From contig JAWODC010000092.1 of NCBI GenBank assembly GCA_046483495.1, positions 128,153 to 192,152 of the forward strand: 64,000 nucleotides of DNA. Direction: 5' to 3'. The stretch is from Desulfobacterales bacterium (lineage in GTDB: Bacteria; Desulfobacterota; Desulfobacteria; Desulfobacterales; UBA5616). The notes under the pieces were generated by a model. It had not been told where the DNA came from. It was given only the letters and a program-made list of their open reading frames with translations, and did no database searches. Position numbers and translations under genes: made by a program. This document shows, in pieces, positions 1 to 51,243 of this stretch; the stretch's first letter is position 1; the number at the start of each line of letters is the position of its first letter.

Positions 1-546
1 TTCCTGAGGGCGGCACGTCACCTGAAATCCGATGTCCAGGTGGTTTTATGCGCCAGTTCGCCGGATACGCCGGAGTTGATGAGTGACGTTTCGGACAGCG
101 TGTCCCGGACCGAAATGAAAAACGGCAATCCGATTATTTGGATCAAGGAAAGCGTTCCTGTTGACGACCTGATCGTGCTGTACAGTCATGCCGACGTGTT
201 TGTCTGTCCATCGGTCTATGAACCGTTCGGCATTACACTCCTGGAAGCGATGGCGTGCGGTTTGCCGGTTGTGGCATCGGCCGTCGGCGGCATCCCGAGC
301 GTCGTTGCAAACGGCAAAACCGGTCGGCTGGTGTCATTTGAAACCGCAGGCGATAACGGCTTCGAGCCGTCCGATCCGGGACGGTTTGCTCGGGATTTGG
401 CCGAGCAGATCGATGAACTGTTGAATTCTCCGGTACTGCTGTCCCAAATGGGAGTCGCCGCCCGGCAGCGGGTGATGAAATACTTTACGTGGAAAAGTAT
501 CGCCGAAAAGACATTCATCTTCTACAGCCGGTTAATCGAAGCATAA
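1..546 (+). CDS. GT4-family (GT-B) alpha-glucan synthase, C-terminal part only (5' end outside window); actinobacterial-type GlgA / GlgM-like
   Basis: Frame 1 is open from base 1 (FLRAARHLKSDVQVVLCASS...) to TAA at 544-546. The block VFVCPSVYEPFGITLLEAMACGLPVVASAVGGIPSVVANGKTGRLV is the typical GT4 C-terminal nucleotide-sugar binding region. The gene lies next to GlgE-pathway genes. Confidence 0.65.
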   Translation, partial: FLRAARHLKSDVQVVLCASSPDTPELMSDVSDSVSRTEMKNGNPIIWIKESVPVDDLIVLYSHADVFVCPSVYEPFGITLLEAMACGLPVVASAVGGIPSVVANGKTGRLVSFETAGDNGFEPSDPGRFARDLAEQIDELLNSPVLLSQMGVAARQRVMKYFTWKSIAEKTFIFYSRLIEA

Positions 547-568
547 CCGGTTATGTGAGACCCATGAC

Positions 569-4596: not shown

Positions 4597-4606
4597 GACG
4601 GATTCC

Positions 4607-8895: not shown

Positions 8896-8899
8896 GATG

Positions 8900-10849
8900 C
8901 TACTCTCTTTTAAAGAAAACAGCGGCCAGCGGCGGCAGAACAAGGCTCAGGGAATAGGGATGACCGTGGTAGGGAACGGGCGTGGCGGAAACACCCCCCA
9001 GGCTGCCCTGTCCGCTTCCGCCGTATAGGCCGGCATCGCTGTTCAGCAGTTCTTTCCAGAAACCCGATTTCGGCGCCCCCACACGGTAATTATGCCGGGG
9101 TATGGGCGTGAAATTAAAAATGCCGATAATCGCTTCGCCGCCCGCTCCGGCTTTTCGAAGCAGACTGACGGTGCTTTGAATGTTGTCATTGCAGTCGATC
9201 CAGCTGAATCCCTCAGGGCTGAAATCCCTGTCGTGCATGGCCGGTTCGGTTATGTAGAACCGGTTCAAATCTTCCACCCACCGCTTCAGGCATGCATGCA
9301 TGGGGTATTCCAATAGGTGCCAGTGGATACTGCCGTCATGGTGCCATTCATCCCACTGTCCGATTTCATCGCCCATGAACAGCAGTTTTTTTCCGGGCTG
9401 GGCGGCCATGTATCCATAAAGAAGCCTCAGGTTGGCAAATCTCCGCCAGTCGTCCCCGGGCATTTTGCCGATCAGGGAGGATTTTCCGTGGACCACCTCA
9501 TCGTGGGAGAGGGGAAGCATGAAATTTTCACTGAACGCGTAAAGCATGCGGAAATTCAATTTGTTGTGATGGTAACTCCTGTGTATCGGATCCTTGGACA
9601 TGTACTCCAGCGTGTCGTGCATCCATCCCATGTCCCATTTCATCGAAAAACCGAGCCCCCCCACATAGGCGGGACGCGAAACCATGGGCCATGAGGTGGA
9701 CTCCTCGGCGATGGTCTGGACACCGGGATAATGTTGGTGAAGCACTTCGTTCAATTCGCGGAGAAAATCGATGGCGTCCAGGTTCTCCCGTCCGCCGTGA
9801 ATGTTGGGGACCCATTCCCCCTCCTCGCGCGAATAGTCCAGGTACAGCATCGATGCCACCGCATCCATTCTCAGGCCGTCCACGTGATACTTGTCAAGCC
9901 AGAACACGGCGCTGCTGATGAGAAAACTTCGAATTTCATTTCGGCCGTAGTTGAAAATGAAGCTCTTCCAGTCCGGATGGAAGCCCTGGCGGGGATCTTC
10001 GTGTTCAAAAAGATGCGTGCCGTCAAAATATCCGAGCCCGTGTTCATCCGATGGGAAGTGGGAAGGGACCCAGTCCAGTATTACCCCGATGCCGGCCTGG
10101 TGAAGTGTGTCCACCAAAAACATGAAATCCTGGGGTGTGCCGTAGCGGCTGGTCGGTGCGAAATACCCAAGGGTCTGATACCCCCAGGAGCCGTAAAACG
10201 GATGTTCCATTATCGGCAGAAATTCGACATGAGTAAAGTTCATCTGCTGAAGATACGCCGCCAGCTTCGGTGCCGCCTCCCGATAGGTCAGGAAGCGGTT
10301 GTTTTCTTCAGGCACCCGCATCCATGAGCCCAAATGAAGTTCATAAACGGCGATGGGCGATCGGGATGCATCGAAACGGGTTCTCTGCGCCATCCATTCG
10401 CCGTCATGCCATTCATAGGAAAGGTCCCATGTGACTGAAGCCGTTTTAGGGGAAATTTCGTAGAAAAAGCCGTAGGGGTCTGTTTTATCCACCTGATAAT
10501 TCCTTGCATGCGATACGATATGGTACTTGTACAGGGTCCCTTGTTCCATACCGCTGATAAAGCATTCCCAAATGCCGGAATGCCCCCGCTGCTGCAGGGG
10601 ATCGGCATCGTGGCGCCAGTTGTTGAAATCTCCGATTACCGAAACACTTCGAGCATTGGGCGCCCAAACGGCAAAATACATTCCCCGGCGGGCGCCGTCG
10701 GAAATCGGATGGGCACCGAGCTTTTCGTACAGCCGGAAATGGCTGCCCTCATTGAAGAGGTATAGATCGTCCTCCGAGAGCAACGAAAAATATTGCCCCT
10801 TTTCATCTTGTGCGGCTGCTTCCATCGGCGTTTCGTCTGACATATGCAC
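8900..10849 (-). CDS. glgB: 1,4-alpha-glucan branching enzyme
   Basis: 649 aa. YELHLGSW, FTHVEFLPIMEHPFYGSWGYQ, VILDWVPSHF, DGLRMDAVASMLY and SHDEVVHGK are canonical GlgB/GH13_9 blocks. Confidence 0.92.
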   Translation of the reverse strand: MHMSDETPMEAAAQDEKGQYFSLLSEDDLYLFNEGSHFRLYEKLGAHPISDGARRGMYFAVWAPNARSVSVIGDFNNWRHDADPLQQRGHSGIWECFISGMEQGTLYKYHIVSHARNYQVDKTDPYGFFYEISPKTASVTWDLSYEWHDGEWMAQRTRFDASRSPIAVYELHLGSWMRVPEENNRFLTYREAAPKLAAYLQQMNFTHVEFLPIMEHPFYGSWGYQTLGYFAPTSRYGTPQDFMFLVDTLHQAGIGVILDWVPSHFPSDEHGLGYFDGTHLFEHEDPRQGFHPDWKSFIFNYGRNEIRSFLISSAVFWLDKYHVDGLRMDAVASMLYLDYSREEGEWVPNIHGGRENLDAIDFLRELNEVLHQHYPGVQTIAEESTSWPMVSRPAYVGGLGFSMKWDMGWMHDTLEYMSKDPIHRSYHHNKLNFRMLYAFSENFMLPLSHDEVVHGKSSLIGKMPGDDWRRFANLRLLYGYMAAQPGKKLLFMGDEIGQWDEWHHDGSIHWHLLEYPMHACLKRWVEDLNRFYITEPAMHDRDFSPEGFSWIDCNDNIQSTVSLLRKAGAGGEAIIGIFNFTPIPRHNYRVGAPKSGFWKELLNSDAGLYGGSGQGSLGGVSATPVPYHGHPYSLSLVLPPLAAVFFKRE

Positions 10850-10923
10850 GTCCTTTATCTTTCTTCCCTTTTCGGGAAAATCAAGTGGTCAATCACCGCA
10901 AACACGGGCTTGACTCATGGCAT

Positions 10924-13900
10924 TTACTCCGTATGCTCCCGCATCAATTCGAGGAGACCTTTTAACGGGATTCTCAACCACTCCGGTCGATTGTTTAATT
11001 CGTAGGCCAGTTCGTAGAGGGCTTTATCCAGCAGATAAATTTCAAGCAGAATTCTGAATTCGCCGATATTTTCAGGCAGAAATGCTTCCTCCCCGGCTTC
11101 GGACAAATAGGCCTGGAGAAACAGGATGCGAACCCATTGGTACCATCGCATTGCACAGGATTTCAAAAATGCTTCATTTTCGGCGCCATCCGTAATTCCC
11201 CGGCTTTTGATTGAAAAAAGCGCCGCATATGCCGCGTAGTGAAAGGAACGAAGCATACCGGCCACATCCCGAAGGGCGCTTCGCTTGATTCTTCTTTCCG
11301 ATACCGGCCGGGCCGGCTCGCCTTCGAAATCGATAATCTGGAAGTCCTTGCCGGTGTACAAGACCTGGCCCAGGTGGTAGTCGCCGTGGCAGCGGATGCG
11401 CATGGCCGTAAATTTTCGGGTCAGCAGGAGTTGATACCGTTTAAAGATATCCGCTTCGAGACGCACCACGGCATTTGCGTCTTCCTGAAGATCGGCAGGA
11501 AGTTTACCCATGGTTTTCTTTAAAAGCGGCAGCGTTTTTAATGCAAGGGAACGAACGGACTGGTAGAGGCTCCGTTGATAGAGTTTTGTAAACGGCTCCG
11601 GCGAGAAGACGGATCCCTTCGATGCCGATGCCAGCGTGATGTGCAGCTGCGCCGTTCGAATGCCGATCAAGCGGGCCGAGTCCATATACGATCCGATCAA
11701 TTCCAGGGGTTCGGGAGGAAGTGATTCGGATATCAAACTCAATGAGGGCGACTCTGACGATATAAAGGTCAAAAAACGCTCTTTTTCGGCAAGCGCATTT
11801 TCGAACATGGCATTGAGCCGGCTCAGCGTATGGCGCCATGCATCTCCCTGATTTGCGACGTATTCATGAAGGGTCGACAAGGTCATGGGTTCTTCTTTTT
11901 CAGGGTAAAATGCAATGGCCCCCGCCAGGTGCGGCGTGTGGGGAAAATTTTTGCGTGTTAAAAACTGCCCGATTTCGAAGTCCGGATTTATTCCGGGAGT
12001 AAGCCGCCGGATCAGTTTAAGAATCAGCTGATTTCCGAATATGACGGATGTATTGCTTTGTTCCGAAGCGCTGACCATCGTGATCACCGTTTCGGGCAAT
12101 TGCTTTTTCAAATGTGCAAATGCCGAAGTCTTCACCGCCGCGACGGCGCCTTTGCCGACTTTAATGCGTTTGCGCCGTTCGATCATCCGCAGCAACAGAA
12201 CACATACCCGGGTTGCCGCCATACCGTCATGGAGAAGACAAACCGTCTTCTTGCTTTTGTGCTTCAGCCAGGCAATGGCCGCCCATCTGTTCTGCTGGAG
12301 AATTTCGTCGGATTCGGGGGCTTCCGAAAAGGTGACCGGCAGGACGTAAGTCTCGGAGTCGCCTTGCGTATAATCCACCTCTACGAACAAGACGGCAATC
12401 GGCGTTTCCGACCTCCCGACGGGAAAAACATCCCGGATGGTCGTCTGCTTTATGACACGCGCCTTTCCGCCGAACCATCGGGCTTTTTTGATGTATTGTG
12501 AAAGCACTTCTTCCAGCATGGCCTTTTGTGGACCGGAGAAAATGCTGTTGAGTTTTCCACTGATCGTCAACTCCGGTATTGCTGAAGCCGGGGGCTCGGC
12601 GGCAGCCGCTTCGGCCGGTTGTCGGGTTAAATAAAACCAAAAAAAACTATGAGGCCCCAACGACAGAAAATAGGGGGCGGGGCCTATGAATGGAAAAGCG
12701 GTACGGCCGAAAAGTTCCACCGGCACAGCTCCTTGATACGCGGACAGATCGAGTTCCACATATTGCACGAAGCGTGACAGGTTGACTACCACCAGAATGT
12801 TTTCTTCTTCATAGCTTCTGATAAAGGCCAGAATATGATTATTTTCCGGGCGCAAGAACGTAATGGTTCCCCTGCTGAATGCCTTGAATCGCTTCCGCAG
12901 CGTGATAATTCGCTTCATCCACCATAGAACGGAGTGGGGGTTTTGCTGTTGAACTTCTACATTGATGACTTCGAAATGGTATTCCGGTGAAATATTGACC
13001 GGCAGATACAGGGCTTGGGGGTTTGCACGGGAAAAGCCGGCATTCCGGTCACCGGACCACTGCATGGGGGTGCGGACTCCGCCCCTGTCGCCGAGGTGGA
13101 TATTGTCTCCCATGGCGATTTCATCCCCGTAGTAAATAATGGGTGTTCCGGGCATCGAAAACAGCAGCGCATTCATTAATTCGATGCGGCGGCGATGATT
13201 GCCCAGAAGTGGGGCAAGGCGCCTGCGGATTCCCAGGTTCAGCCGCATTTTCCGATCATGCGCATACACCCGGTACATGTAATCGCGCTCTTCGTCGGTA
13301 ACCATTTCAAGGGTCAATTCATCGTGATTGCGAAGAAAAATCGCCCACTGGCAGGAACTGCAGATTGCCGGAGTTTGTTCCAGAATGTCCAGAATGGGAA
13401 AACTGTCTTCCATCTGCAGCGCCATGTAAAGCCGGGGCATAAGGGGAAAATGAAAGGCCATTTGAAATTCATCGCCCTCGCCGAAATAGGCGGCGGCATC
13501 TTCCGGCCACTGGTTGGCTTCCGCCAACAGCATGCGGTTTTTGTATTTTTCATCGACATGCGCCCTGATTTCTTTTACAAATGCATGGGTTTCCGGCAGG
13601 TTTTCGCAGTTGGTCCCTTCACGTTCATATAGATAGGGAACAGCGTCCATTCGAAAACCATCCACGCCCTGGTTCAGCCAAAATTCCAGCGCGTTCAAGA
13701 TGGCTTTGCGGACTTGCGGGTGATCATAGTTGAGATCGGGCTGATGGGAGTAAAAGCGATGCCAGAAGTAGGCCTTTGCAACCGGGTCCCATGTCCAATT
13801 CGATGATTCAAAATCCTGGAAAATGATTCGGGTTTCCGTATAGCGATCCGGTGTCTCGCTCCAGACGTACCATTTCCGGTATTTGCTGTGGGGGGGGCTT

Positions 13901-14280
13901 TGCCGGGCCCTTTGAAACCAAGGGTGCTGATCGGAGGTGTGGTTCACCACCAGTTCTGTGATCACCCGAATGCCCCGTTGGTGGGCGCTTCGAAGAAACA
14001 ACCTGAAATCGGAAAGCGAACCGTAATCCGGGTGGATATCCTTGTAGTCGGAAATGTCGTACCCGTCGTCTTTTTGGGGGGAGGGATAAAACGGCAGCAG
14101 CCAAATGGCCGTTATGCCGAGGTCCTGAAGATAATCGAGCTTTTGAGAAAGCCCTTTGAAATCACCGATTCCGTCGGCATCGCCGTCGAAATAGCTTTTG
14201 ACGTGAAGTTGGTAAATAACGGCATCCTTGTACCAGTATGGATCATTGCTCAATAGCGATTCGCTTTTAGCTGTCTGCAT
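10924..14280 (-). CDS. treS: Trehalose synthase / maltokinase fusion (TreS-Pep2/Mak)
   Basis: 1118 aa. The N-terminal half (WYKDAVIYQLHVKSYFDGDADGIGDFKGL..., DGFRMDAVPYL, FLRNHDELTLE) is TreS. The C-terminal half (RCHGDYHLGQVLYTGKDFQIIDFEGEP...RSALRDVAGMLRSFHYAA) is the maltokinase (aminoglycoside-phosphotransferase-like) domain. Confidence 0.9.
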   Translation of the reverse strand: MQTAKSESLLSNDPYWYKDAVIYQLHVKSYFDGDADGIGDFKGLSQKLDYLQDLGITAIWLLPFYPSPQKDDGYDISDYKDIHPDYGSLSDFRLFLRSAHQRGIRVITELVVNHTSDQHPWFQRARQSPPHSKYRKWYVWSETPDRYTETRIIFQDFESSNWTWDPVAKAYFWHRFYSHQPDLNYDHPQVRKAILNALEFWLNQGVDGFRMDAVPYLYEREGTNCENLPETHAFVKEIRAHVDEKYKNRMLLAEANQWPEDAAAYFGEGDEFQMAFHFPLMPRLYMALQMEDSFPILDILEQTPAICSSCQWAIFLRNHDELTLEMVTDEERDYMYRVYAHDRKMRLNLGIRRRLAPLLGNHRRRIELMNALLFSMPGTPIIYYGDEIAMGDNIHLGDRGGVRTPMQWSGDRNAGFSRANPQALYLPVNISPEYHFEVINVEVQQQNPHSVLWWMKRIITLRKRFKAFSRGTITFLRPENNHILAFIRSYEEENILVVVNLSRFVQYVELDLSAYQGAVPVELFGRTAFPFIGPAPYFLSLGPHSFFWFYLTRQPAEAAAAEPPASAIPELTISGKLNSIFSGPQKAMLEEVLSQYIKKARWFGGKARVIKQTTIRDVFPVGRSETPIAVLFVEVDYTQGDSETYVLPVTFSEAPESDEILQQNRWAAIAWLKHKSKKTVCLLHDGMAATRVCVLLLRMIERRKRIKVGKGAVAAVKTSAFAHLKKQLPETVITMVSASEQSNTSVIFGNQLILKLIRRLTPGINPDFEIGQFLTRKNFPHTPHLAGAIAFYPEKEEPMTLSTLHEYVANQGDAWRHTLSRLNAMFENALAEKERFLTFISSESPSLSLISESLPPEPLELIGSYMDSARLIGIRTAQLHITLASASKGSVFSPEPFTKLYQRSLYQSVRSLALKTLPLLKKTMGKLPADLQEDANAVVRLEADIFKRYQLLLTRKFTAMRIRCHGDYHLGQVLYTGKDFQIIDFEGEPARPVSERRIKRSALRDVAGMLRSFHYAAYAALFSIKSRGITDGAENEAFLKSCAMRWYQWVRILFLQAYLSEAGEEAFLPENIGEFRILLEIYLLDKALYELAYELNNRPEWLRIPLKGLLELMREHTE

Positions 14281-14294
14281 ACTCCGATTTCCGT

Positions 14295-16295
14295 TTAGAG
14301 GTAGTAATCAAAATCTTTCTCCGTTCTGACTTTTCGTCGAATCGCAAAAATATGAGCCGGTATAATCCGGGGATCGAGTTCCACATAATTGCGGTCACCG
14401 TACCAGAGGAAGCGTGCGTCACTCAAAAGATCGTGCATTTGAAAGGATTTTGCCGGATCCAGATGCATTGCGGAAAGCGGGAGATCCACCCAACCGGCAT
14501 GCGTGTGGTGGGGGTCTAAATTAACCACGACAAGGATGGTATTGGACCGGTCGTCGGAACGTTTGCTATAGCAGATCATTTGTTCATTATCCACCGGAAG
14601 AAAGGCCAGACTTCGGTTGTTGTGCAGGGCAGGGTTTTCCTTCCGGATGTGGTTTACCCGGGCGATGAGCTCCTTTAAGCTCATCGGAGAGGAAATATCC
14701 CACGTTTTGGTTTCGTATTTTTCCGAATCGAGGTACTCCTCGCTGCCCGGCTCCTTGGGTTCATTCATGCACAACTCGAAAGCGGGTCCGTAAATGCCGT
14801 AGCTTGCACCCAGTGTGGCGGCCAATACCAGACGGACGATAAAGGCCGCTCTTCCCCCCGTCTGCAGGTATTCGGTCAGAATGTCCGGCGTGTTCGGCCA
14901 GAGATTGGGTCTGAAATAGTCACGAACCTCTGTCCGGGTCAATTCCGTGAAATACTTTTGGATATCATAAGCGGTGTTTCGCCATGTAAAGTAGGTGTAG
15001 GATTGGCTGAATCCAGCCTTCGCCAACCGGTACATGACCTTGGGCCGGGTGAATGCTTCGGACAAAAAGATCGTTTCCGGATACCTGGACCTGACGTTTC
15101 CGATCAGCCATTCCCAAAACGCGAAAGGTTTGGTATGCGGGTTATCCACACGGAAAATCCGTATCCCCTGCTCTATCCAATAGAACGTAACCCGCATCAG
15201 TTCCCGGGCCAGTTCCCGCCATCGGTCCGATTCGAAATCCAATGGATAAATATCCTCATATTTTTTTGGGGGATTTTCCGCGTATTGAATGGAGCCGTCC
15301 GGCCGATGACGAAACCACTCGGGATGTTCACTTACGTAAGGATGATCCGGGGAGCATTGGAATGCCAGGTCCATGGCGATTTCGATCCCGTATTCTTCAG
15401 CCTTTTTGACCAAATTTCTAAAATCCGCCAATGTCCCCAACAAGGGGTGTATTTCCGTGTGGCCGCCCTCACGGACTCCGATGGCCCAGGGGCTCCCCGG
15501 GTCTTCCGGGCCGGCAACAGGAGTGTTGTTTTTCCCTTTCCGATGGGTTCGGCCGATGGGATGGATCGGAGGCAGGTATAAAATGTCGAATCCCATATCC
15601 GCAATATAGGGGAGCCGTTTTTCGCAATCGTCAAAGGTCCCGTGTCGCCGTTCTTCCCCGGCACAGGAACGCGGAAACATTTCATACCAACTGCCGTACA
15701 ACGCCCGTTTGCGCTCGGCCAGGACCAACAGTTCTTTTTCATAAAAGGAGGCTTTTTTTCTGTCGGTGTGTTTTTGCATCAGGTGCAGCAGGCCTTTACC
15801 GAGCGCAAGTGCAATTCGTCCTTTTTGGGGCTTGTCTGAGCGGATATCGCTTGCCCGGCTTCGCAGCCAATCGCCGTCGGATTTGGGTGCCGGATCCGCC
15901 GTTTTTTCGATCAGTGCGGCACCTGTGAGAAGATCGATTTCCACATCCTGGCCGGCGGCTGTTTTTTTGGCCAGATCCCGGCGCCAGGTTTTGAATTCGT
16001 CAATCCATGCGCACAGGGTGTAGACGTAACCCCCGATCTCCTCGATCGAAAAAGCGGCATACCAGCGGTCGTTCAGGAGAAGCCGCAAGGGGGTTTCTTC
16101 CCATTGAACACCGTCTTTCGGGCGATGCATTAAAACGCCGGAAATCAAGTCATGGCCGTCGGTAAAAATATCGGCCGACACCGCCAGTTTTTCACCGAGG
16201 GTTCGCTTAACGGGAAACCGGCCGCCGTCGATTTCGGGTGACACCCTTTCAATGATGACGCGGGGCAAGAAGGTCTCGGTTTGGATGTCAATCAT
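14295..16295 (-). CDS. glgE: Alpha-1,4-glucan:maltose-1-phosphate maltosyltransferase (GlgE)
   Basis: 666 aa. The N-terminus VIIERVSPEIDGGRFPVKRTLGE is typical of GlgE. GH13_3 blocks SWYEMFPRS, DILYLPPIHPIG and IFRVDNPHTKPF are present. Confidence 0.88.
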   Translation of the reverse strand: MIDIQTETFLPRVIIERVSPEIDGGRFPVKRTLGEKLAVSADIFTDGHDLISGVLMHRPKDGVQWEETPLRLLLNDRWYAAFSIEEIGGYVYTLCAWIDEFKTWRRDLAKKTAAGQDVEIDLLTGAALIEKTADPAPKSDGDWLRSRASDIRSDKPQKGRIALALGKGLLHLMQKHTDRKKASFYEKELLVLAERKRALYGSWYEMFPRSCAGEERRHGTFDDCEKRLPYIADMGFDILYLPPIHPIGRTHRKGKNNTPVAGPEDPGSPWAIGVREGGHTEIHPLLGTLADFRNLVKKAEEYGIEIAMDLAFQCSPDHPYVSEHPEWFRHRPDGSIQYAENPPKKYEDIYPLDFESDRWRELARELMRVTFYWIEQGIRIFRVDNPHTKPFAFWEWLIGNVRSRYPETIFLSEAFTRPKVMYRLAKAGFSQSYTYFTWRNTAYDIQKYFTELTRTEVRDYFRPNLWPNTPDILTEYLQTGGRAAFIVRLVLAATLGASYGIYGPAFELCMNEPKEPGSEEYLDSEKYETKTWDISSPMSLKELIARVNHIRKENPALHNNRSLAFLPVDNEQMICYSKRSDDRSNTILVVVNLDPHHTHAGWVDLPLSAMHLDPAKSFQMHDLLSDARFLWYGDRNYVELDPRIIPAHIFAIRRKVRTEKDFDYYL

Positions 16296-16359
16296 AAATC
16301 CGCCCTATTGGATGTGTCGGCGTTGGCATTGTATTGTGTGCGATGGACAACCTCCCGTT

Positions 16360-17904
16360 TCAGACGTAGGGTGAAGCCGGGTAGTTTTGGATGGGCGGCC
16401 GGGGTGCGGCCGGAGCCTTCGTTGCCGGTTTATATTCGACCAGAGGGAAATCCTTTACTTCGTGTATGAATACGGAATTCAGAAAAGCTTCCACCCAATA
16501 GTAAATGTCCTGTCTGCGAATGGCTTTTCTCATCATTTTCATGCGGTATTGGCGCTGGGCCGGCTCCATTTGCGTGGCGGTAAAAAGGGTTTGGGCCACC
16601 GATTCGACATGGTAGGGATTGACCAGCAGCGCGCCCCGTTGAAGCTGGGCGCTGGCGCCTGCGAATTCGCTCAAGATAAGCACCCCGTTTTCTTCCACGT
16701 TTGAGGCGCAGTATTCTTTTGCCACAAGGTTCATACCGTCCTTCAACGGTGTGATGAATGCGACATCCGAAGCGCGGTAAAATGCCAACAGCTCTTGCCG
16801 GTCAATGGAGCGGAACATGTAATGGATCGGCGTCCACCCGGGGCGTCCGTATCGCCCGTTTATTTCACTGATCTTGCGTTCGAGCTGTTCTTTCAGCTCC
16901 AGGTACTTGGGAATCGTAACCCGGCTGGGAACGACGAGCTGAAGCAGTGACATGTTGCCCCGAAGTTGCGGGTACCTGTCGAGGGCCATTTCAAAAGCCG
17001 CCAGTCTTTCCGGAATTCCCTTGGTGTAATCCAGACGATCGATTCCCAGAACGATGTGTTCGACATCGAGTTCTTCTTGAACTTCCCTGACCCTGTCTTC
17101 CACTTCCCGCTTTTCCGCGTTTCTGGCAAATTCATCGAAATCGATGCTGATGGGGAAATTGCCGATGCGGATTTCCCGATCGTTCACCTGGGCGGTGATC
17201 ACCTTGCCCCGCTCCCGGATGACGACATCCCGAAAAAGGGCGCGGATGCACCGAATAAAATTCCTCCGGTCCCGCATGGTCTGAAATCCGACCAAATCGT
17301 AGGACAGCAGGCCTTCCATGACTTCGTACCGCCAGGGCAGTTTGAAAAAGAGATCCGGAGAAGGGAAGGGGATGTGAAGGAAAAATCCGATTTTGGAGGT
17401 CACTCCCATCTCCCGAAGGTTTTTGCCGGCCATCATCAAATGATAGTCATGGATCCAGATATGGTCGCCGTTGATGATGCTTTCATGCGTGCTTTGTGCA
17501 AATTTACGGTTTACCGCCTGATAAGCCTTCCAGTAGGAGGGGTCGAAATTGCAGCGGGTCTGAAGATCATGAAACAGGGGCCATATAATTTCATTGGCGA
17601 ATCCATAATAAAAACTGTCCACTTCCTCGGGCGTGAGCATCACCGGTTCGAAGCTGTACCCGGTGCCGTCCGTCGTTTCATTGAGCAGTTTTTTAATGAG
17701 GTGTTTTTTGCCTTTGGTCGTTCCCGGCCATCCGATCCATAATCCTCCCCGGTTCCGAAGAACCGGCACCATGGCTGTCACCAATCCGCCGGAGCCGTCT
17801 TTTACCTCAAATCTTCCCGAGTCATCCTGCGATATTGTCGAAGGCAGCCTGTTCGATATGATGATGAGACGATTTTTTGCCGTTTTTTCAGTGATTAGAC
17901 TCAT
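16360..17904 (-). CDS. otsA: Alpha,alpha-trehalose-phosphate synthase (GT20)
   Basis: 514 aa. [38 protein letters not shown] and [14 protein letters not shown] are OtsA/GT20 blocks. A Pro-rich tail of about 40 aa follows. Confidence 0.88.
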
Positions 17905-21810: not shown

Positions 21811-23178
21811 ATGCCGACAAAAAGACTAGTCGTAATCGGAGGCAATGCGGCCGGAATGGGGGCTGCCTCCCAGGCGAGGCGTCAGCAGAACGATTTGATC
21901 ATAAAGGCATTCGAAAAGACGCCCTATCCGTCCTATTCACCATGAGGCATTCCGTACCTGATCGGCCGGGTAGTCGATAATCCTGAAAAATTGATCGTCC
22001 GAACCCCCAGAGTTTTCAGGGAAAAACAAAATATTGAAACCTACGTATCCCATGAGGTCCGGGAAATCGATATCGAGCGTCAGCGAATCCGCGTCCAGCG
22101 CAAGGAGGATGGAAAAACCTGGTGGGAGCCTTACGATCACCTGATGATCGCAACGGGGTCCGTTCCCATACGCATTCCGGTGCAAGGATCGGATTCAGAA
22201 GGCATTTTCGGCGTCAACACCTATGAAAGCGGAATTAAGCTGAATCGGTTCCTGGATGACGCGTCGGCTAAGAACGCCGTGGTGATCGGCGGCGGTTATA
22301 TCGGACTGGAAATGGCCGAGAATCTGATCAAAAGGGGACTGAGCGTTTCATTGGTCGAATTGAACAAAGAGGTGATGTCAACGCTGGATCCGGACATGGG
22401 AAAACTCGTATCCGATGCGCTGATCGAGATCGGTGTGAAACTTTTTCGGGAGGAACGGTTCGAGGGTTTTGAAACGGACAACGGGCGCGTCAGGGCGGTG
22501 GTCACCGATAAACGGACATTGCCCGCCGATGTTGTTGTACTGGGTATGGGGGTTCGGCCGAATACGGAACTCGCCCAAAAGGCCGGTATCCCCATCGGTC
22601 CGTCAAAGGGGATCAGGGTGAATCCGCTCCTGCAGACGGACGTGGAAAACGTATGGGCGGGAGGGGATTGCGCGGAGTCCATTCACCTGGTCAGCGGCAA
22701 ACCTGTTCATATCCCCCTTGGGACGGTGGCGAACAAACATGGCCGGGTGGCGGGGATCAACATCGGCGGCGGGTATGCCACCTTTCCCGGCGTAGTCGGG
22801 ACGGCTATGAGCAAAATATGTGCGGTCGAGGTCGCCCGAACGGGTCTTGGAGAAAAAGAGGTGCAACGTATCGGGCTGCACTATATCACCTCGGTTACAC
22901 GGACCAGGACACGTGCGGGTTACTACCCGAATGCGGATTCTATTTCAGTAAAATTGATTGCCGAAAAAAACACCGGCAGATTACTCGGTGCCCAAATCGT
23001 CGGCAGAGAAGGGGCTGCCAAACGAATCGATATTCTGGCAACCGCCCTGCATCGAAGAATGAACCTCCAGGAAATTATGGATTTGGACCTGAGTTATGCG
23101 CCTCCGTATTCACCTGTTTGGGACCCGGTGGCATTGGCGGCACGGGTGGCCTTGAAAAAACTTCAGCCCGATACATAA
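21811..23178 (+). CDS. CoA-disulfide reductase / NADH oxidase-family flavoprotein with in-frame UGA (predicted selenocysteine) at 21943-21945
   Basis: Track ORFs 21727..21945 and 21991..23178 share one frame and are separated only by TGA, with no other stop. The joined sequence MPTKRLVVIGGNAAGMGAASQARR...FEKTPYPSYSP-U-GIPYLIGRVV matches the family redox-centre motif S(F/Y)xxC(A/G)(L/I)PY(V/L)IG, with U in place of the Cys. Downstream FAD/NAD(P) motifs VVIGGGYIGLEMAE and AGGDCAE are present. ATG 21811 was chosen as the start. Confidence 0.75.
21955..21972 (+). promoter_or_regulatory. Candidate SECIS-like hairpin downstream of UGA 21943-21945
   Basis: UACCUG-AUCGGC-CGGGUA: 6 bp including one G-U pair, with a 6-nt G-containing loop. 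It begins 9 nt after the UGA. An imperfect lower extension is possible. This is the weakest of the three hairpins. Confidence 0.35.
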
Positions 23179-46336: not shown

Positions 46337-46861
46337 ATGAATCTAATGAACAAAAAATCATGGTCCCCCTATTGGGTAGGGGGTGCCATCGGCATTCTGG
46401 AGACGGTGGCGATGCTTACCGCAAAAAGGCCGTTGGGCATTACGACCGCTTTTGAAAACGCCGCAGCCATGGCGGCCGGCAAGCTGGCACCGAAAAAATT
46501 GGGGATCGAGGAATATCGACACCAGAGTGGCCAGACGCCGAAAATCGACTGGGAGACGGGGCTCGTCGGCGGGGTTATGCTTGGAAGTCTGATCAGTGCC
46601 CGCTTGTCCGAAGACTCGAAACCGCCTGAAGTGCCGACTGCCTGGCAGGAGAAAGTCGGCCGGTCAAAGGCGCTCCGATTTGCGGCCGCCACCGGCGGAG
46701 GCGCGCTCATGATGATCGGCGCCCGAATGGCAAAGGGGTGCACGAGCGGTCACGGCATCAGCGGGACGATGCAATTCGCAGCTTCCAGTTGGCTCTTCGA
46801 TCCGATTATCTTTGCATCCGGGGCGGTGGTGTCCAGGGCGCTGTTCGGGAGGAAAACATGA
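46337..46861 (+). CDS. YeeE/YedE-family sulfur-compound transporter component (first half-type protein)
   Basis: 174 aa membrane protein. PLGITTAF and MAKGCTSGHGISG are the YeeE/YedE Cys-containing motifs. Confidence 0.75.
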   Translation: MNLMNKKSWSPYWVGGAIGILETVAMLTAKRPLGITTAFENAAAMAAGKLAPKKLGIEEYRHQSGQTPKIDWETGLVGGVMLGSLISARLSEDSKPPEVPTAWQEKVGRSKALRFAAATGGGALMMIGARMAKGCTSGHGISGTMQFAASSWLFDPIIFASGAVVSRALFGRKT

Positions 46862-47418
46862 CACGAGAATCCATTGGAAGACTTTTGCTCGGGTTCGGGA
46901 CAGGCGCGGCATTCGGTTTTCTGTTGCATAAGGGGCGGGCTTCGGAATATGAGGTCATTTCCGGTCAATTGCTCGCAACCGACGCATCCGTCGTTAAGAT
47001 AATGGCTACCGCGTCCGCTGTCGGCGCCTTTGGAACCCAACTTCTCAACCGGCATGAAAAGGCGGATATCAAAATCAAGCCGCTCAATGCCGGGGGCGTT
47101 GCCGTTGGGGGGACACTTTTCGGGATAGGAATGGCGCTCCTGGGGTATTGTCCGGGGACCGATATGGCGGCCTTGGGTGCCGGCCATACGGATGCGGCCT
47201 TCGGCGCGGTCGGAATGTTCGGCGGTGCACTGGCCTTTGTGGGGCTTTACCCCTATATAAAACCGGTGATCGAAAAAGGTGCCGTCGGAAAACGAACACT
47301 GCCGGAGCTCACCGGCACCTCTCCCTGGCTTTGGGTTTCCGGAATCGCGGCTGCAGCGGCGGTGACTGCCGGGTTTTTGGAGAAAAACGGTTCCCGCCGC
47401 CAATCCGCTGTCGAGTAG
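46858..47418 (+). CDS. YeeE/YedE-family sulfur-compound transporter component (second half-type protein)
   Basis: ATG 46858 overlaps the upstream stop (ATGA). GFGTGAAFGFLLHKG and LLGYCPGTDMAALG are YeeE/YedE-type motifs. Confidence 0.75.
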   Translation: MTRESIGRLLLGFGTGAAFGFLLHKGRASEYEVISGQLLATDASVVKIMATASAVGAFGTQLLNRHEKADIKIKPLNAGGVAVGGTLFGIGMALLGYCPGTDMAALGAGHTDAAFGAVGMFGGALAFVGLYPYIKPVIEKGAVGKRTLPELTGTSPWLWVSGIAAAAAVTAGFLEKNGSRRQSAVE

Positions 47419-47486
47419 GGACACGACGATAAGCCGGACCATTCAGTTCTAAAGATAACCATGCATTTCCCGAAAGGAGGCAAGAC

Positions 47487-48869
47487 ATGGGAAAATTGTT
47501 TCTTGAAACCATACGTTCGGAGGGCCTGTCCCACCTGTCCTATATTATCGGCCATGGCGGGAAAGCGGCTGTCATCGATCCACGTCGTGACAGCCGGGTT
47601 TACGTCGATATCGCATATGAAAAAGGGGCATCGATCACCCATATTTTCGAAACCCACCGGAACGAAGACTACGTGATCGGTTCACTCGATTTGGCCGGGC
47701 GGACAGGTGCGGAAATTTATCACAGCCATGCCACCGAATTCGACTATGGAAATGCGGTATCCGAGGGAAGCCGTTTTCAGTTGGGCAGCCTCGAATTCAG
47801 GGTGCTGGAGACGCCGGGGCATACCTACGACAGCCTGTCGCTTGCCCTTGTCGACAAGAGTTTCGGGGAGGACCCTATTGCAGTCTTTACCGGCGATGCC
47901 CTGTTTATCGGAGACGTGGGCAGAACCGATTTTTTCCCCGACCGCAAGGAGGAGGTCGCCGGCCTGCTGTATGACAGCATTTTTAATAAACTACTGCCCC
48001 TTGGCGACTATGTTATTCTATATCCGGCCCATGGCGCGGGATCGGTCTGTGGCGCCGGTATGGCCGATCGCGAGTTTTCGACACTCGGATTTGAACGGCG
48101 GCATAATCCCGTGCTGCAGAAAACGGACAGGGAGGCGTTCATCCGGTACAAGGTCAACGAGCATCATTACAAGCCCCCGTATTTCAGCCAAATGGAAAAA
48201 TTCAACCGTGAAGGGGCGCCGTCCCTTTGCGAAATTCCGAAACCGCCGCCGTTGGGGCCGTCGGCATTCGAAGAGCGAATGAATAACGGCATGATTGCCG
48301 TCGATACACGAAGCGCGGAAGCCTTTGCCGGCTCCTTTATCCCCGGAAGCATCGCACTGCCGCTTGAAATGATCCCGGCATTTGCGGGATATTTTATTCC
48401 CTACGACCGGGAAATCGGTCTGATCACGTCGGGATATGAGCATGTGGACAGGGCCGTGCGCTTCCTGATCCGCATGGGCTATGATACCATCGCCGGCCAT
48501 CTCGATGAAGGGCTTCATTCCTGGCAGGTCAGCGGACGGAAATACGACCGGATTCCCGCCGTTCACGCCAAGGAGCTTGTCCGGCGTATTCAATCCAATG
48601 AAGACTTCACGCTTTTGGATGTTCGGCGGATTGACGAGGTTCAAAAGGGCCACCTGCCGGGAGCCGTTCACATCTATCTTGGAGATCTCCCGGACCGGCT
48701 GAACGATGTTCCGAAAGAGCGGCCCGTCACCACTTTTTGCGGGAGCGGTCAGCGGGCGATCATCGCCGCGTCCATTCTCAAGCAAAACGGATTTGAGCTG
48801 GTCGAGGACAGTTTAGGATCCATGGCGGCGTGCAACGTCATCGGGTGTCCGATTATAACCAAGGAATAA
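47487..48869 (+). CDS. MBL-fold hydrolase fused to two rhodanese domains (persulfide-dioxygenase-like architecture)
   Basis: 460 aa. The MBL core carries the variant metal motif ETHRNEDY and the block TPGHTYDS. The first rhodanese domain lacks Cys. The second has the active loop FCGSGQRA. Confidence 0.8.
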   Translation: MGKLFLETIRSEGLSHLSYIIGHGGKAAVIDPRRDSRVYVDIAYEKGASITHIFETHRNEDYVIGSLDLAGRTGAEIYHSHATEFDYGNAVSEGSRFQLGSLEFRVLETPGHTYDSLSLALVDKSFGEDPIAVFTGDALFIGDVGRTDFFPDRKEEVAGLLYDSIFNKLLPLGDYVILYPAHGAGSVCGAGMADREFSTLGFERRHNPVLQKTDREAFIRYKVNEHHYKPPYFSQMEKFNREGAPSLCEIPKPPPLGPSAFEERMNNGMIAVDTRSAEAFAGSFIPGSIALPLEMIPAFAGYFIPYDREIGLITSGYEHVDRAVRFLIRMGYDTIAGHLDEGLHSWQVSGRKYDRIPAVHAKELVRRIQSNEDFTLLDVRRIDEVQKGHLPGAVHIYLGDLPDRLNDVPKERPVTTFCGSGQRAIIAASILKQNGFELVEDSLGSMAACNVIGCPIITKE

Positions 48870-48878
48870 GGAAGGGGT

Positions 48879-49658
48879 ATGGACGGGTTTTCGCATGATG
48901 CATCGCACGTTTTCAGTTCCGCAGAAGAGGAGATTTATGCGCAATGGCTGAAAATTCTGGAATCCGCCGAAATCGAATATGCCGTCGGCGGGGCCTACGC
49001 GTTGGGGTTTCACACGAACATCTGGCGCAATACCAAAGACTTGGATATTTTCGTAACGCCGGCCGATCTTCGGAAAACACTTAAAACCATGCAGGAATCC
49101 GGTTTTTGGACCACCGTGAAAAACACGTCCTGGCTGGCCAAATTTCGGTCCGAAAATTACTTCATGGACCTTATTTTCGGCCTGTCCAACCACGCCAATA
49201 AAATCGATCGGTCCTGGATCGAAAATGCCGTACCGGCGGAGATCTTCGGCATTTCCTCCCGGGTGCTTCGGCCGGAGGAATTTCTGGCATCCAAGGTGTA
49301 CGTCATGCGTCGGGAACGGTTCGACGGATCCGACATCGCCCATCTCATTCGGGCGGTGAAAGGCAGGCTGAATTGGGAGCGCATCCTGGAAATTCTTCAA
49401 CAGGACCGGCAGCTGCTCTTATGGCATTTGCTCTTTTTCGATTACGTCTATCCGGGGCACTCGAACTATCTGCCGACCGATCTTATGGCGTACCTTTTCG
49501 ATAAGGCGAAGCGGCGATGGCAGGATGGAAACATCCCCAAAGAGGCGTTTTTCGGCATGCGGGTGGATCCGAAACAGTTTGAAATCGACTTGGACCGCTT
49601 CAGCTACAAGGGCGAAAAGCGGGGCCCGTTGGTGGATGAAAAAGGCAAGGAAATATGA
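48879..49658 (+). CDS. Hypothetical protein with minimal nucleotidyltransferase-fold motif
   Basis: 259 aa. VGGAYALGFHTNIWRNTKDLDIFV fits the hG[GS]-x(9-13)-DhD pattern of pol-beta-superfamily NTases. The rest is not recognised. Confidence 0.45.
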   Translation: MDGFSHDASHVFSSAEEEIYAQWLKILESAEIEYAVGGAYALGFHTNIWRNTKDLDIFVTPADLRKTLKTMQESGFWTTVKNTSWLAKFRSENYFMDLIFGLSNHANKIDRSWIENAVPAEIFGISSRVLRPEEFLASKVYVMRRERFDGSDIAHLIRAVKGRLNWERILEILQQDRQLLLWHLLFFDYVYPGHSNYLPTDLMAYLFDKAKRRWQDGNIPKEAFFGMRVDPKQFEIDLDRFSYKGEKRGPLVDEKGKEI

Positions 49659-50359
49659 AAATTGCGGCGCTTGGAGACCTGCACTACACATCACGTTCAG
49701 CCGGACTCCTGAAGCATCTGCTTAATGGGATGGAGGGCCGGGCGGATGTCCTGGTGCTTGCCGGCGATCTCACGAATATGGGGCGGATGGTCGAAATCGA
49801 ACTTCTGATCAAAGACCTTCGGCAGATTACTATACCGATTATCGCCGTGGTGGGGAACCACGACCATGAAAGTGACCAGCAGCAGGAACTGGTTCAATTG
49901 ATGGAAAAAGCGAACGTCTGTGTACTCGACTGCACATCATGTGTAATCGAGGGCATCGGATTTGTCGGATCGAAAGGGTTCTGTGGCGGGTTTGGGGAAC
50001 GCATGGTCAGTGTGTTCGGGGAGCGGGCCATCAAATCGTTTGTCCAGGAAAGCATTTCAGAAACCGAACGGCTGGCCCGGGCGCTTGCTTCGATGACGGT
50101 CAAGCGCCGGGTGGCCGTTCTCCACTATGGGCCGGTCAAGGGGACGCTCGCCGGCGAACCCGAGGAAATCATTCCGTTTCTCGGCACATCCCGGCTTGCC
50201 GAGGTCTTGGACCAGTATGGGGTGGACATGATCTTTCACGGTCACGCCCATCACGGACGGTACGAATCCAAAACCCCCGGAGGCATTCCCGTGTACAACG
50301 TCGCTCGATTCGTACTGGCGCGCGAAGGGGAGAAACCGTTTCGAATTTTCGAGATGTAA
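49655..50359 (+). CDS. Calcineurin-like metallophosphoesterase
   Basis: MKIAALGDLHY, VLAGDLTNMG, VVGNHDHE and HGHAHHG are the metallophosphoesterase motifs I-V. The ATG overlaps the upstream stop (ATGA 49655-49658). Confidence 0.75.
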   Translation: MKIAALGDLHYTSRSAGLLKHLLNGMEGRADVLVLAGDLTNMGRMVEIELLIKDLRQITIPIIAVVGNHDHESDQQQELVQLMEKANVCVLDCTSCVIEGIGFVGSKGFCGGFGERMVSVFGERAIKSFVQESISETERLARALASMTVKRRVAVLHYGPVKGTLAGEPEEIIPFLGTSRLAEVLDQYGVDMIFHGHAHHGRYESKTPGGIPVYNVARFVLAREGEKPFRIFEM

Positions 50360-50382
50360 ATTTTGGGAAAAGGAGAATGCAA

Positions 50383-50769
50383 ATGGTGAAAATAATGATC
50401 TTCACGGTGTTGGGAATGTTGTGGCTTGCCGGTTCCGTTAATGCAGGTGAACCTGCAGGAAAAAGCGAGATTCCGCGAATCTCTCCCGAATCGGCCCATG
50501 AACAGGTGCAGTCCGGTGAGGCCCTCCTCGTCTGCGCCTATGATGATGAACGATGCAGACAACTCCTCCTGGAGAATGCCATTCTCCGCAGTGAGCTGGA
50601 ATCCCGGCTTCCTTCCATCGATAAGGACCGGGAAATCATTTTCTACTGCGGCTGACCGAGCGAAAAAACGTCCGCCCGTGTGGCGGCCCAATACAGGGAA
50701 AAAGGGTACACCCATGTGAAGGCCCTTGCCGGGGGAATAGACGCCTGGAAGGCCAAGGGATACGAGTGA
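50383..50769 (+). CDS. Exported single-domain rhodanese with in-frame UGA (predicted selenocysteine) at 50653-50655
   Basis: ATG 50383 lies 7 nt after AAAGGAG. The signal peptide is MVKIMIFTVLGMLWLAGSVNA. The frame continues through TGA: ...REIIFYCG-U-PSEKTSARVAAQYREKGYTHVKALAGGIDAWKAKGYE, then TGA at 50767-50769. The post-UGA sequence is a typical rhodanese C-terminus (SARvA...GY..V..L.GG..AW). Confidence 0.7.
50670..50688 (+). promoter_or_regulatory. Candidate SECIS-like hairpin downstream of UGA 50653-50655
   Basis: CCGCC-CGUGU-GGCGG (50672-50686): 5 bp of G-C pairs, plus one more pair after a mismatch, with a G/U-containing pentaloop. The stem starts 16 nt after the UGA. Confidence 0.45.
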
Positions 50770-50851: not shown

Positions 50852-50894
50852 GCCGTGCTGCGGGCGGGTTTTACCCGCAGGCACGGCCGGTTTT
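50852..50894 (+). terminator. Rho-independent-type terminator between convergent genes
   Basis: gccgtgctgcggg (50852-50864) pairs with cccgcaggcacggc (50874-50887): 13 bp with one bulged G and a 9-nt loop, followed by cggUUUU. Confidence 0.55.
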
Positions 50895-50901
50895 AACCGA
50901 G

Positions 50902-51243
50902 TCAATCATTGTTCCGGTCGTAAGGCGGCTGCCGAACGCCGTGGCGGTCCTCCCAGAAATCCGGATCGTAATCGCCGTCGCCGCGTCCTTGCTCATCTTC
51001 CCAATAATCCTCCTGATCCTCTTCGTCGACACCATAGTAAGCCCTGCCGCGGCGGTCTTCCGTATCATAAGGCGGCTGTCGAACACCGTAACGGTCCTCC
51101 CAGAAATCCGGATCATAATCGCCGTCGCCGCGTTCCTGCCGATCCGCCCTACTATCGGTTCCGTCCTGTCCGAATGCGGGCATGGCGGCAAACAGCGTCA
51201 AGGCTAAAAGAGTGAAGAAAATTGACGTTAGTTGCCCTCTCAT
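50902..51243 (-). CDS. Secreted acidic repeat protein (113 aa), unknown function
   Basis: Signal peptide MRGQLTSIFFTLLALTLFAAMPAFG. The mature part carries two copies of RGDGDYDPDFWEDR(Y/H)GVRQPPYD separated by an acidic linker. Confidence 0.6.
   Translation of the reverse strand: MRGQLTSIFFTLLALTLFAAMPAFGQDGTDSRADRQERGDGDYDPDFWEDRYGVRQPPYDTEDRRGRAYYGVDEEDQEDYWEDEQGRGDGDYDPDFWEDRHGVRQPPYDRNND
50917..51132. repeat. Intragenic direct repeat, 2 x 69 bp (50917-50985 and 51064-51132), 147-bp period
   Basis: The two DNA copies are nearly identical (for example cggtcctcccagaaatccggatc[g/a]taatcgccgtcgccgcg). They encode the duplicated 23-aa module of the secreted protein. Confidence 0.85.

Follow-up and report, generated by a model that had tools for sequence, protein, structure and literature searches.

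The 64-kb stretch of DNA analysed here, which is called the window throughout (64,000 nucleotides of contig JAWODC010000092.1 from a Desulfobacterales bacterium), contains a small gene on the forward strand at 50383-50769 that very probably encodes a genuine selenoprotein with a rhodanese domain, in which the in-frame UGA at 50653-50655 would be decoded as selenocysteine (Sec, U). This reading had been proposed by a first-pass annotation made from the letters of the window, and it has gained considerably from a comparison with relatives: the same codon is TGA in nearly all related loci, the frame downstream of it is conserved, full-length homologues mostly carry Cys in its place, and a covarying hairpin follows it. 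The case for Sec rests on this comparison, because neither the 37 open codons behind the UGA, which are within chance expectation when taken by themselves, nor the hairpin of the window goes beyond chance alone.

An in-frame UGA within a conserved rhodanese domain

The coding sequence is predicted to give a precursor of 128 amino acids (aa) with Sec as residue 91. It begins with ATG 50383, 7 nt downstream of the Shine-Dalgarno sequence AGGAG at 50371-50375 as read from the sequence, runs as MVKIMIFTVLGMLWLAGSVNAGEPAGKSEIPRISPESAHEQVQSGEALLVCAYDDERCRQLLLENAILRSELESRLPSIDKDREIIFYCG up to the TGA at 50653-50655, continues with 37 sense codons (PSEKTSARVAAQYREKGYTHVKALAGGIDAWKAKGYE) and ends with the stop codon TGA at 50767-50769. 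An in-frame ATG at 50377 was rejected as the start, since it lies only 1 nt past the GGAG core (50372-50375); the NCBI protein P0001, which corresponds to the window gene, begins with MVKIM like the frame from ATG 50383. The good ribosome binding site claimed in the first-pass annotation is thus found in place, and its coordinates for the start codon, the internal TGA, the 37 further codons and a hairpin at 50672-50686 are all exact. The UGA stands in the motif C-G-U-P-x-E. Two residues before it lies the invariant Cys89 (codon TGC, 50647-50649, in IIFYC), followed by GGC, and a further invariant column of the family is Cys51 (50533-50535, in ALLVCAY), which takes the place of the Asp in the canonical rhodanese strand 'vlvDvR' according to the alignment with the Asp of LVDI in GlpE. 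Cys51, Cys89 and Sec91 make up three conserved chalcogen residues, and the invariant positions also include Glu94 and Trp122. With the TGA read as Cys, the Pfam model Rhodanese (PF00581) matches residues 70-125, i.e. across the TGA, with E = 1e-8 and 36 bits versus a cut-off of 22.2.

In the database, the product of the window gene (P0001, from a Desulfobacterales metagenome-assembled genome) appears as a 'hypothetical protein' of 90 aa, and among the 25 relatives returned by a word-indexed protein search, 23 end exactly at ...IIFYC[G/A/S]. When the 90 N-terminal aa were used as query in an exhaustive HMMER search, 422 relatives were obtained, which mostly end at query residue 89-90. The Sec column was tallied over all 289 retrieved proteins; 170 of them are cut there, 60 have Cys (FYCxCPx[ED]), 16 have Trp (W), 12 have Ser and a few have other residues. 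The first-pass annotation had named a subgroup of single-domain rhodaneses with the loop 'YC-x-C-P-x-E', in which U would replace the second Cys, and had suggested to look at the TGA column in homologues. The subgroup is real, as seen from the 60 full-length Cys forms, and it is Cys that these proteins carry in the column in question. The database entries of the W form are P0028 and P0180-P0201 (16 entries), and one truncated relative of 65 aa, P0263, has been named 'ArsR family transcriptional regulator'.

At the DNA level, genomes were scanned with one representative for each species, which gave 115 encoding loci; all locus counts given here refer to the 80 of them whose DNA was retrieved. 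The codon right after IIFYC[AG] is TGA in 79 loci and TGC in a single one (L071), and the loci with TGA at this same codon span several phyla, among them Desulfobacterota, Nitrospirota, Acidobacteriota and Planctomycetota. Orthologous loci, to which the first-pass annotation had pointed as a further check, thus carry TGA or TGC at this codon with a continuing frame, which goes on for about 37-45 codons past the column in all 80 cases. The consensus behind the column reads U-P-x-E-x-T-S-A-G-x-A-x-x-Y-x-x-x-G-Y-x-N-V-K-A-L-x-G-G-V-x-A-W-K-x-A-G-Y, and the 36 aa behind the TGA share on average 51% identity with the window protein, versus 48% for the 37 aa in front of it. The true stops of the 80 genes are TAA (32), TGA (31, including the window gene itself) and TAG (17). 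In three loci from Smithellaceae and Syntrophus (L060:5845-7392, L062:4067-5458 and L070:2191-3462) the Sec-rhodanese frame runs into a C-terminal extension of about 320-400 residues, in which patatin-like phospholipase motifs (GGGxxG … GTSAG) were recognized by eye, and in L024 the frame extends by about 120 residues that are YHS-like in appearance.

The downstream hairpin and competing explanations

The region behind the UGA contains a hairpin on the forward strand (50670-50688). Its core, CCGCC-CGUGU-GGCGG at 50672-50686, follows 16 nt after the TGA and consists of the stem CCGCC/GGCGG (50672-50676 and 50682-50686) and the apical loop CGUGU (50677-50681), which places the loop G at +26 and the loop U at +27 counted from the U of the UGA. 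SelB recognises a short upper stem whose apical loop, about 20-30 nt behind the UGA, carries G/U, as in the fdhF element of E. coli and the bSECISearch consensus. What the first-pass annotation had described as a G-C-rich hairpin proved to be conserved and covarying among the relatives, and it is on these sequence grounds a predicted element resembling the selenocysteine insertion sequence (SECIS). Rfam scans of the window and of the gene surroundings, with gathering and E-value thresholds, gave no match.

In an alignment of all 80 Sec forms, the 45 nt from the UGA onward need no gaps. The stem joins columns 20-24 to columns 30-34 (C[UC]GCC / GGC[AG]G), is often lengthened to 18-36, and encloses a five-base loop that is GGUCN in most Sec forms and CGUGU in the window and several others; the loop G26 is invariant, and U27 is conserved in at least 90%. 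All five core pairs are formed in 72 Sec forms, and four out of five in the remaining 8. When pairs were counted over a 7-bp helix, 85% of the cells were paired, versus 28-56% with the 3' arm slid by 1-3 columns. The pair 21-33 occurs as U-A (40), C-G (30), U-G (7), A-U (1) and G-C (1), and it is never unpaired. Both of its columns are third codon positions (Ser/Ala UCU/UCC/GCU/GCC and Ala GCA/GCG, respectively); therefore, selection on the protein cannot account for the covariation. In the opposite direction, the RNA element shapes the protein sequence, with the codons of Ser-Ala-Gly-x-Ala forming stem and loop, and the Gly encoded by the loop GGU (U+8) is common in Sec forms and variable in Cys forms.

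The DNA of five non-Sec homologues (L071 and L081-L084) served as control. The hairpin is missing in four of these five Cys or Ser forms, as only 1-3 of the five core pairs are left in L082, L083 and L084 (two Cys, one Ser) and in the TGC locus L071. The fifth one, the Cys form L081:1501-1824 (P0184, TGC), keeps the stem as GCUGCC-GAUCA-GGCAGC, with A replacing the G in the loop; this locus appears to have switched from Sec to Cys recently and to retain a fossil SECIS.

The window harbours a second gene of selenoprotein type at 21811-23178 on the forward strand. It encodes a flavoprotein of the CoA-disulfide-reductase/NADH-oxidase type and has an in-frame TGA at 21943-21945. The match of the open reading frame (ORF) listed there, 21991-23178, to Pyr_redox_2 set in only at profile position 61, and reading upstream reached ATG 21811. 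The N-terminus then becomes MPTKRLVVIGGNAAGMGAASQARRQQNDLIIKAFEKTPYPSYSP-U-GIPYLIG (…PSYSP-U-GIPY…), in which the U aligns with the redox-active Cys of ...SYGACGLPY..., and the full protein scores 445 bits with TIGR03385 and E = 2e-109 with 6ruz. An FAD-dependent oxidoreductase with the motif 'UGxP' (CoADR) is a catalogued selenoprotein type. A small hairpin, UACCUG-AUCGGC-CGGGUA, is found at about 21955-21972 after the TGA of this gene. Because two independent genes with UGA in the place of a redox-active Cys occur in one window, it is very likely that this genome decodes Sec.

Several observations weigh against Sec decoding of the rhodanese gene. Pfam scans of about 40 window ORFs revealed no selA, selB or selD within the 64 kb, and ARAGORN detected no tRNA gene of any kind in the same stretch, tRNA-Sec (selC) included. 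In a few relatives, Sec or Cys is replaced by Ser, Asp or another residue, hence it is not indispensable in every member of the family. Moreover, the hairpin of the window is short (5 bp), its local fold energy is no better than that of shuffled sequences (z = +0.66), and a pattern scan also scores it as a terminator-like site on the minus strand.

Three alternative explanations were weighed. The TGA might be a genuine stop, in which case the product would be a 90-residue truncated protein or the gene a pseudogene, and the open frame behind it would be fortuitous. The deposition of P0001 as a 90-aa 'hypothetical protein' is in line with this view, as is the fact that an open stretch of 37 codons is not rare by chance and that the local fold is insignificant when regarded alone. 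However, the 'truncation' would then have hit the identical codon in 79 species, the product would be short of two fifths of its rhodanese domain, with the GGxxAW strand among the missing parts, and the downstream 36 aa are conserved like the upstream part; full-length Cys homologues exist as well, and a genuine stop appears highly improbable. Alternatively, the UGA might be read as Trp, Gly or Cys, due to a reassigned code or to SECIS-independent read-through, for which the 16 relatives deposited with W (e.g. P0028) and the lack of visible Sec machinery in the 64-kb window could be quoted. Yet the most plausible source of the W entries is gene calling with translation table 4, and non-TGA relatives carry Cys in the column, not Trp or Gly. 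A reassigned code is excluded, because TGA is the ordinary stop of 31 of the 80 genes, including that of the window. Furthermore, a covarying hairpin with G/U in its loop at a fixed distance is a signature of Sec, and it is lost in four of the five Cys and Ser forms, while the second gene with UGA on a redox-active Cys also speaks against a standard amino acid, which we consider very unlikely. Finally, the hairpin at 50672-50686 might be a terminator of the minus strand, or a GC-rich palindrome that arose by coincidence, instead of a SECIS, as the pattern scan reads CCGCCACACGGGCGG followed by ACGTTTTTTC on the minus strand. But no gene of the minus strand ends there, and the T-run represents Lys-Lys codons of this genome alone, which are absent in the relatives; the terminator-like call is an artefact of these codons. 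A stem-loop that is present in all 80 Sec forms, kept in codon register and accompanied by compensatory changes leaves this explanation with an almost negligible probability.

Active site, probable export and possible function

The structure was modelled with AlphaFold2 on the Cys-form homologue P0182, which is 53% identical to the window protein. The model (predicted local distance difference test, pLDDT, 82) displays a rhodanese fold with template modelling (TM) scores of 0.70-0.78 to 3nhv, 3o3w, 6mxv and 3ilm, and by homology the domain of the window protein is predicted to be a rhodanese fold, too. In the secondary structure of the model, the strand Q-I-I-F-Y is followed by the coil C-A-C and by a helix that starts from Pro. 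Cys89 and Sec91 are both situated in the strand-to-helix connection of the active site, whichever of them corresponds to the catalytic Cys. In a profile alignment of the family, U91 falls on Cys65 of GlpE with one single-residue gap in the matched region, and the NCBIfam model of GlpE places residues 30-125 on profile positions 4-99 with equal lengths, which favours U91. In contrast, phmmer aligns FYCG to FYCG of 6mxv with a two-residue gap, which favours Cys89 and agrees with the strand boundary in the AlphaFold2 model. Typical loops of active rhodaneses comprise six residues, C-x-x-G-x-[R/S/T], with Gly and basic or hydroxyl residues. The loop of the present family, [C-G]-U-P-x-E-x-T-S, departs from that pattern: its Pro is nearly invariant and its Glu invariant, and conserved Gly, Arg or Lys residues are lacking. 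Glu94, one of the invariant positions, gives the loop an acidic character, which also speaks against an anion-binding site of the classical rhodanese kind.

Residues 1-21 (50383-50445, forward strand) form a putative signal peptide, composed of the n-region MVK, the h-region IMIFTVLGMLWLAG and the c-region SVNA with predicted cleavage at VNA|GE, so that the N-terminus including the cleavage site reads MVKIMIFTVLGMLWLAGSVNA|GE. According to sequence inspection and a hydropathy heuristic, it has a hydrophobic core of 14 residues and a hydropathy of 2.43 over 12 residues; the features of a type I signal of the Sec pathway, i.e. a positively charged n-region, a core of 10-15 residues and small residues at -3 and -1, are present by rule as well as by heuristic. 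The signal peptide claimed in the first-pass annotation is hence canonical, and it is common to the nearest clade: the nearest loci (L001-L006, L008, L010, L011, L013, L015 and L043) and the proteins P0002-P0023 all have a signal peptide or a lipobox (LLSC, LLAC), and some sister sequences have AxA sites. Most genomic relatives are cytoplasmic proteins of about 105 aa that begin with M-x-E-P-I-R-I-S-P-E, at the point where the mature domain of the window protein starts, and predicted export is confined to the clade of the window protein. Among 313 family members, the hydropathy and lipobox heuristic classified 116 as exported and 197 as being without signal peptide. It is therefore probable, on sequence criteria, that the window protein is exported. 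The mature domain of about 107 residues would then work outside the cytoplasm, and some of the relatives would be lipoproteins.

It might also be that the gene encodes a selenoprotein whose N-terminal segment is an uncleaved anchor or non-functional, and that the protein is a classical thiosulfate sulfurtransferase in the cytoplasm or tethered to the membrane, not a periplasmic redox relay. The 197 family members without signal peptide are compatible with this possibility, and the closest functional annotations are indeed the sulfurtransferases GlpE, PspE and YgaP. Nevertheless, an n-h-c layout ending in V-N-A|G suits cleavage by signal peptidase I, the lipoboxes of the sister proteins make sense only for export, and the loop U-P-x-E-x-T-S with its invariant Glu and without Arg or Lys is unlike thiosulfate-binding rhodanese loops; such an alternative is quite unlikely.

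Regarding an exported selenoprotein, the following course of events can be envisaged. The hairpin 16 nt 3' of the UGA, whose apical loop contains G and U, very probably directs the decoding of Sec; elements of this type are bound by SelB-GTP-Sec-tRNA. The precursor would be exported by the Sec translocon, and the signal peptide would be cleaved off. The selenolate of U91, located between the central beta-strand (IIFY) and the next helix (P-x-E-x-T-S...), would then act as the nucleophile and take over sulfane sulfur (or selenium) from a persulfide, a polysulfide or a thiosulfate-type donor. Subsequently, the invariant Cys89 would attack the adduct, giving a selenenylsulfide, and the sulfur would be released or passed on, while the invariant Cys51 would sit on the neighbouring strand. 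Acting in this way, the protein would work as a relay or reductase with a redox-active C-x-U pair rather than as a plain thiosulfate:cyanide transferase. Its position behind the halves of a YeeE/YedE-type transporter for sulfur compounds and a protein combining a metallo-beta-lactamase (MBL) fold with rhodanese would fit the handling of reactive sulfur at the envelope. As reported in a paper citing Ogasawara et al. 2001, rhodanese can carry selenium.

The C-x-U relay is a tentative proposal, which we make with rather low confidence. What counts against it is that mechanism and substrate are both inferred, that the alignments disagree over Cys89 and Sec91 as the counterpart of the catalytic Cys, and that no conserved gene neighbourhood backs any pathway. 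An even more specific version appears unlikely at present, namely that the C-x-U clade with signal peptide or lipoprotein signal represents an unrecognized periplasmic selenol relay, which would capture or reduce the sulfur of persulfides or polysulfides, or scavenge selenium, and hand the atom over to the co-transcribed halves of a YeeE/YedE-type importer and the MBL-rhodanese, with Sec as the actual catalytic nucleophile of a rhodanese fold and Cys89 as the resolving residue.

Gene neighbourhood, known relatives and meaning

The rhodanese gene is the last one behind a co-directional run of genes (46337-50359) with short or overlapping intergenic gaps. As annotated with Pfam and NCBIfam, the run on the forward strand comprises two YeeE/YedE (Sulf_transp) half-proteins at 46337-46861 and within ORF 46738-47418, an MBL-fold plus rhodanese protein of 460 aa with two rhodanese stretches (47487-48869), a nucleotidyltransferase (48879-49658) and a metallophosphoesterase (49655-50359), which ends 24 nt upstream of the rhodanese gene. 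The two YeeE/YedE ORFs overlap as listed, and in the second one the Pfam match covers the listed frame only from residue 66 onward. The architecture of the MBL-rhodanese protein resembles the solved beta-lactamase plus rhodanese protein 3tp9 (473 aa) from Alicyclobacillus and persulfide-dioxygenase-rhodanese fusions. Downstream, a strong GC-rich hairpin (50852-50887) with UUUU at 50891-50894 (forward strand, 50852-50894, z = -2.3) is likely a terminator shared with a small convergent gene on the minus strand (50902-51243). The latter encodes a 113-aa protein with signal peptide, which contains two copies of RGDGDYDPDFWEDR[YH]GVRQPPYD, and its DNA harbours a direct repeat of 92 nt (50918-51009/51065-51156) with 84% identity.

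The arrangement is not found elsewhere in the family. BLASTP searches with eight window neighbours against the ORFs around the 80 loci gave zero matches, all-against-all clustering of 2,151 neighbouring ORFs from these loci yielded no neighbour family in more than 7 loci, and a Pfam census of 57 neighbours at 12 loci of the exported clade detected no family in more than two. Because no neighbour is conserved among the 80 loci, the link to the sulfur genes is weak functional evidence, and the 'sulfur operon' is a local arrangement. The view of the first-pass annotation, that the gene is the last one of a sulfur operon, hence stands for the gene order in the window, where the convergent gene and the terminator follow, but it does not extend to the other loci. 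Another part of the window (1-17904) is occupied by genes for alpha-glucan and trehalose metabolism, i.e. a GlgE-type maltosyltransferase, a TreS/maltokinase-like protein, a branching enzyme, a GH57 protein, a 4-alpha-glucanotransferase and a GT20 trehalose-phosphate synthase, which are unrelated to the rhodanese finding.

A rhodanese selenoprotein with the motif CxU (COG0607/PF00581) has already been predicted. Two reviews (PMC9312934 and PMC13188914) include it and credit it to Zhang & Gladyshev 2005, and selenoprotein subfamilies are defined by domain and Sec motif (PMC9312934). The window protein shows the combination used in this literature, a rhodanese domain plus C89-G90-U91, and on that definition it counts among the known class. 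Like the CxU class, it has a single rhodanese domain of about 105-130 aa in which Sec stands two residues past the conserved Cys that closes the central strand (…[FL]YC[AG]U…); unlike the class as described, the sub-clade of the window protein adds a signal peptide or a lipobox. In the passages considered, neither the two reviews nor the paper on Olavius algarvensis (PMC1976440) mention a signal peptide or a periplasmic location for the CxU family. For the delta-symbiont of Olavius algarvensis, eight selenoprotein genes for 'rhodanese-related sulfurtransferase' with a UxU variant have been described (PMC1976440). They go under the same family name, the family is abundant in Deltaproteobacteria, and UxU implies a CxU parent motif, a likeness that refers to the description only; in contrast to the clade of the window protein, those passages report no export signal and no SECIS covariation.

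Among the NCBIfam models, NF041203, 'rhodanese-related (seleno)protein, LYCAU', gives the best match both to the window protein and to each of the ten relatives that were scored. The window protein scores 62.4 bits and the ten relatives 44-72 bits, which is below the curated cut-off of 115 for the equivalog; Sec was entered as Cys for this scoring, which cannot explain the gap of 50 bits. The FYC[AG]U-P-x-E clade is hence a sister group outside of the NCBI equivalog that the annotation pipeline misses, and since its scores fall below the cut-off, the clade is annotated as truncated hypothetical proteins.

Other known proteins share single features with the window protein. GlpE, PspE and YgaP of E. 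coli and Sud of Wolinella are alike in fold and size, with weak but consistent hidden Markov model matches, and PspE and Sud are periplasmic, which provides a precedent for exported single-domain rhodaneses handling sulfane sulfur. They possess one catalytic Cys, whereas the family of the window protein has the C-x-U pair, a near-invariant Pro, an invariant Glu, no basic residue and the extra Cys51. The uncharacterised, rhodanese-like FYCxCPx[ED] proteins of the Cys form and Alr3790 (PDB 3hix, 3ilm) are direct homologues, 40-55% identical, with the same loop length and the same Glu/Asp. The former have Cys in place of Sec, and Alr3790 lacks both Cys and has Ala at the Sec position. MccSep/ExtKL from Geobacter sulfurreducens is a Sec protein with an experimentally verified cleavage of its signal peptide and periplasmic sulfur chemistry (PMC13510729). 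It resembles the window protein in being an exported selenoprotein, but it is a multihaem cytochrome c without sequence relationship. Judged by these comparisons, the gene at 50383-50769 is probably a mis-annotated, exported example of an already predicted kind of selenoprotein and is not categorically new.

The relevance of the finding lies first in annotation. The window gene and most of its several hundred relatives are deposited as 'hypothetical proteins' of 65-95 residues cut at the Sec codon, and a dedicated model would recover a widespread selenoprotein, because the existing NCBI model misses the clade. The family can also serve as a teaching case, in which a SECIS hairpin constrains its host protein and a Sec-to-Cys conversion leaves a fossil hairpin behind. 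The literature searched contains no biochemical characterisation of any rhodanese selenoprotein, and the reviews give such proteins as predicted. Hence, the exported C-x-U form may be a compact and tractable candidate to learn what selenium adds to sulfur transfer outside the cytoplasm of anaerobes.

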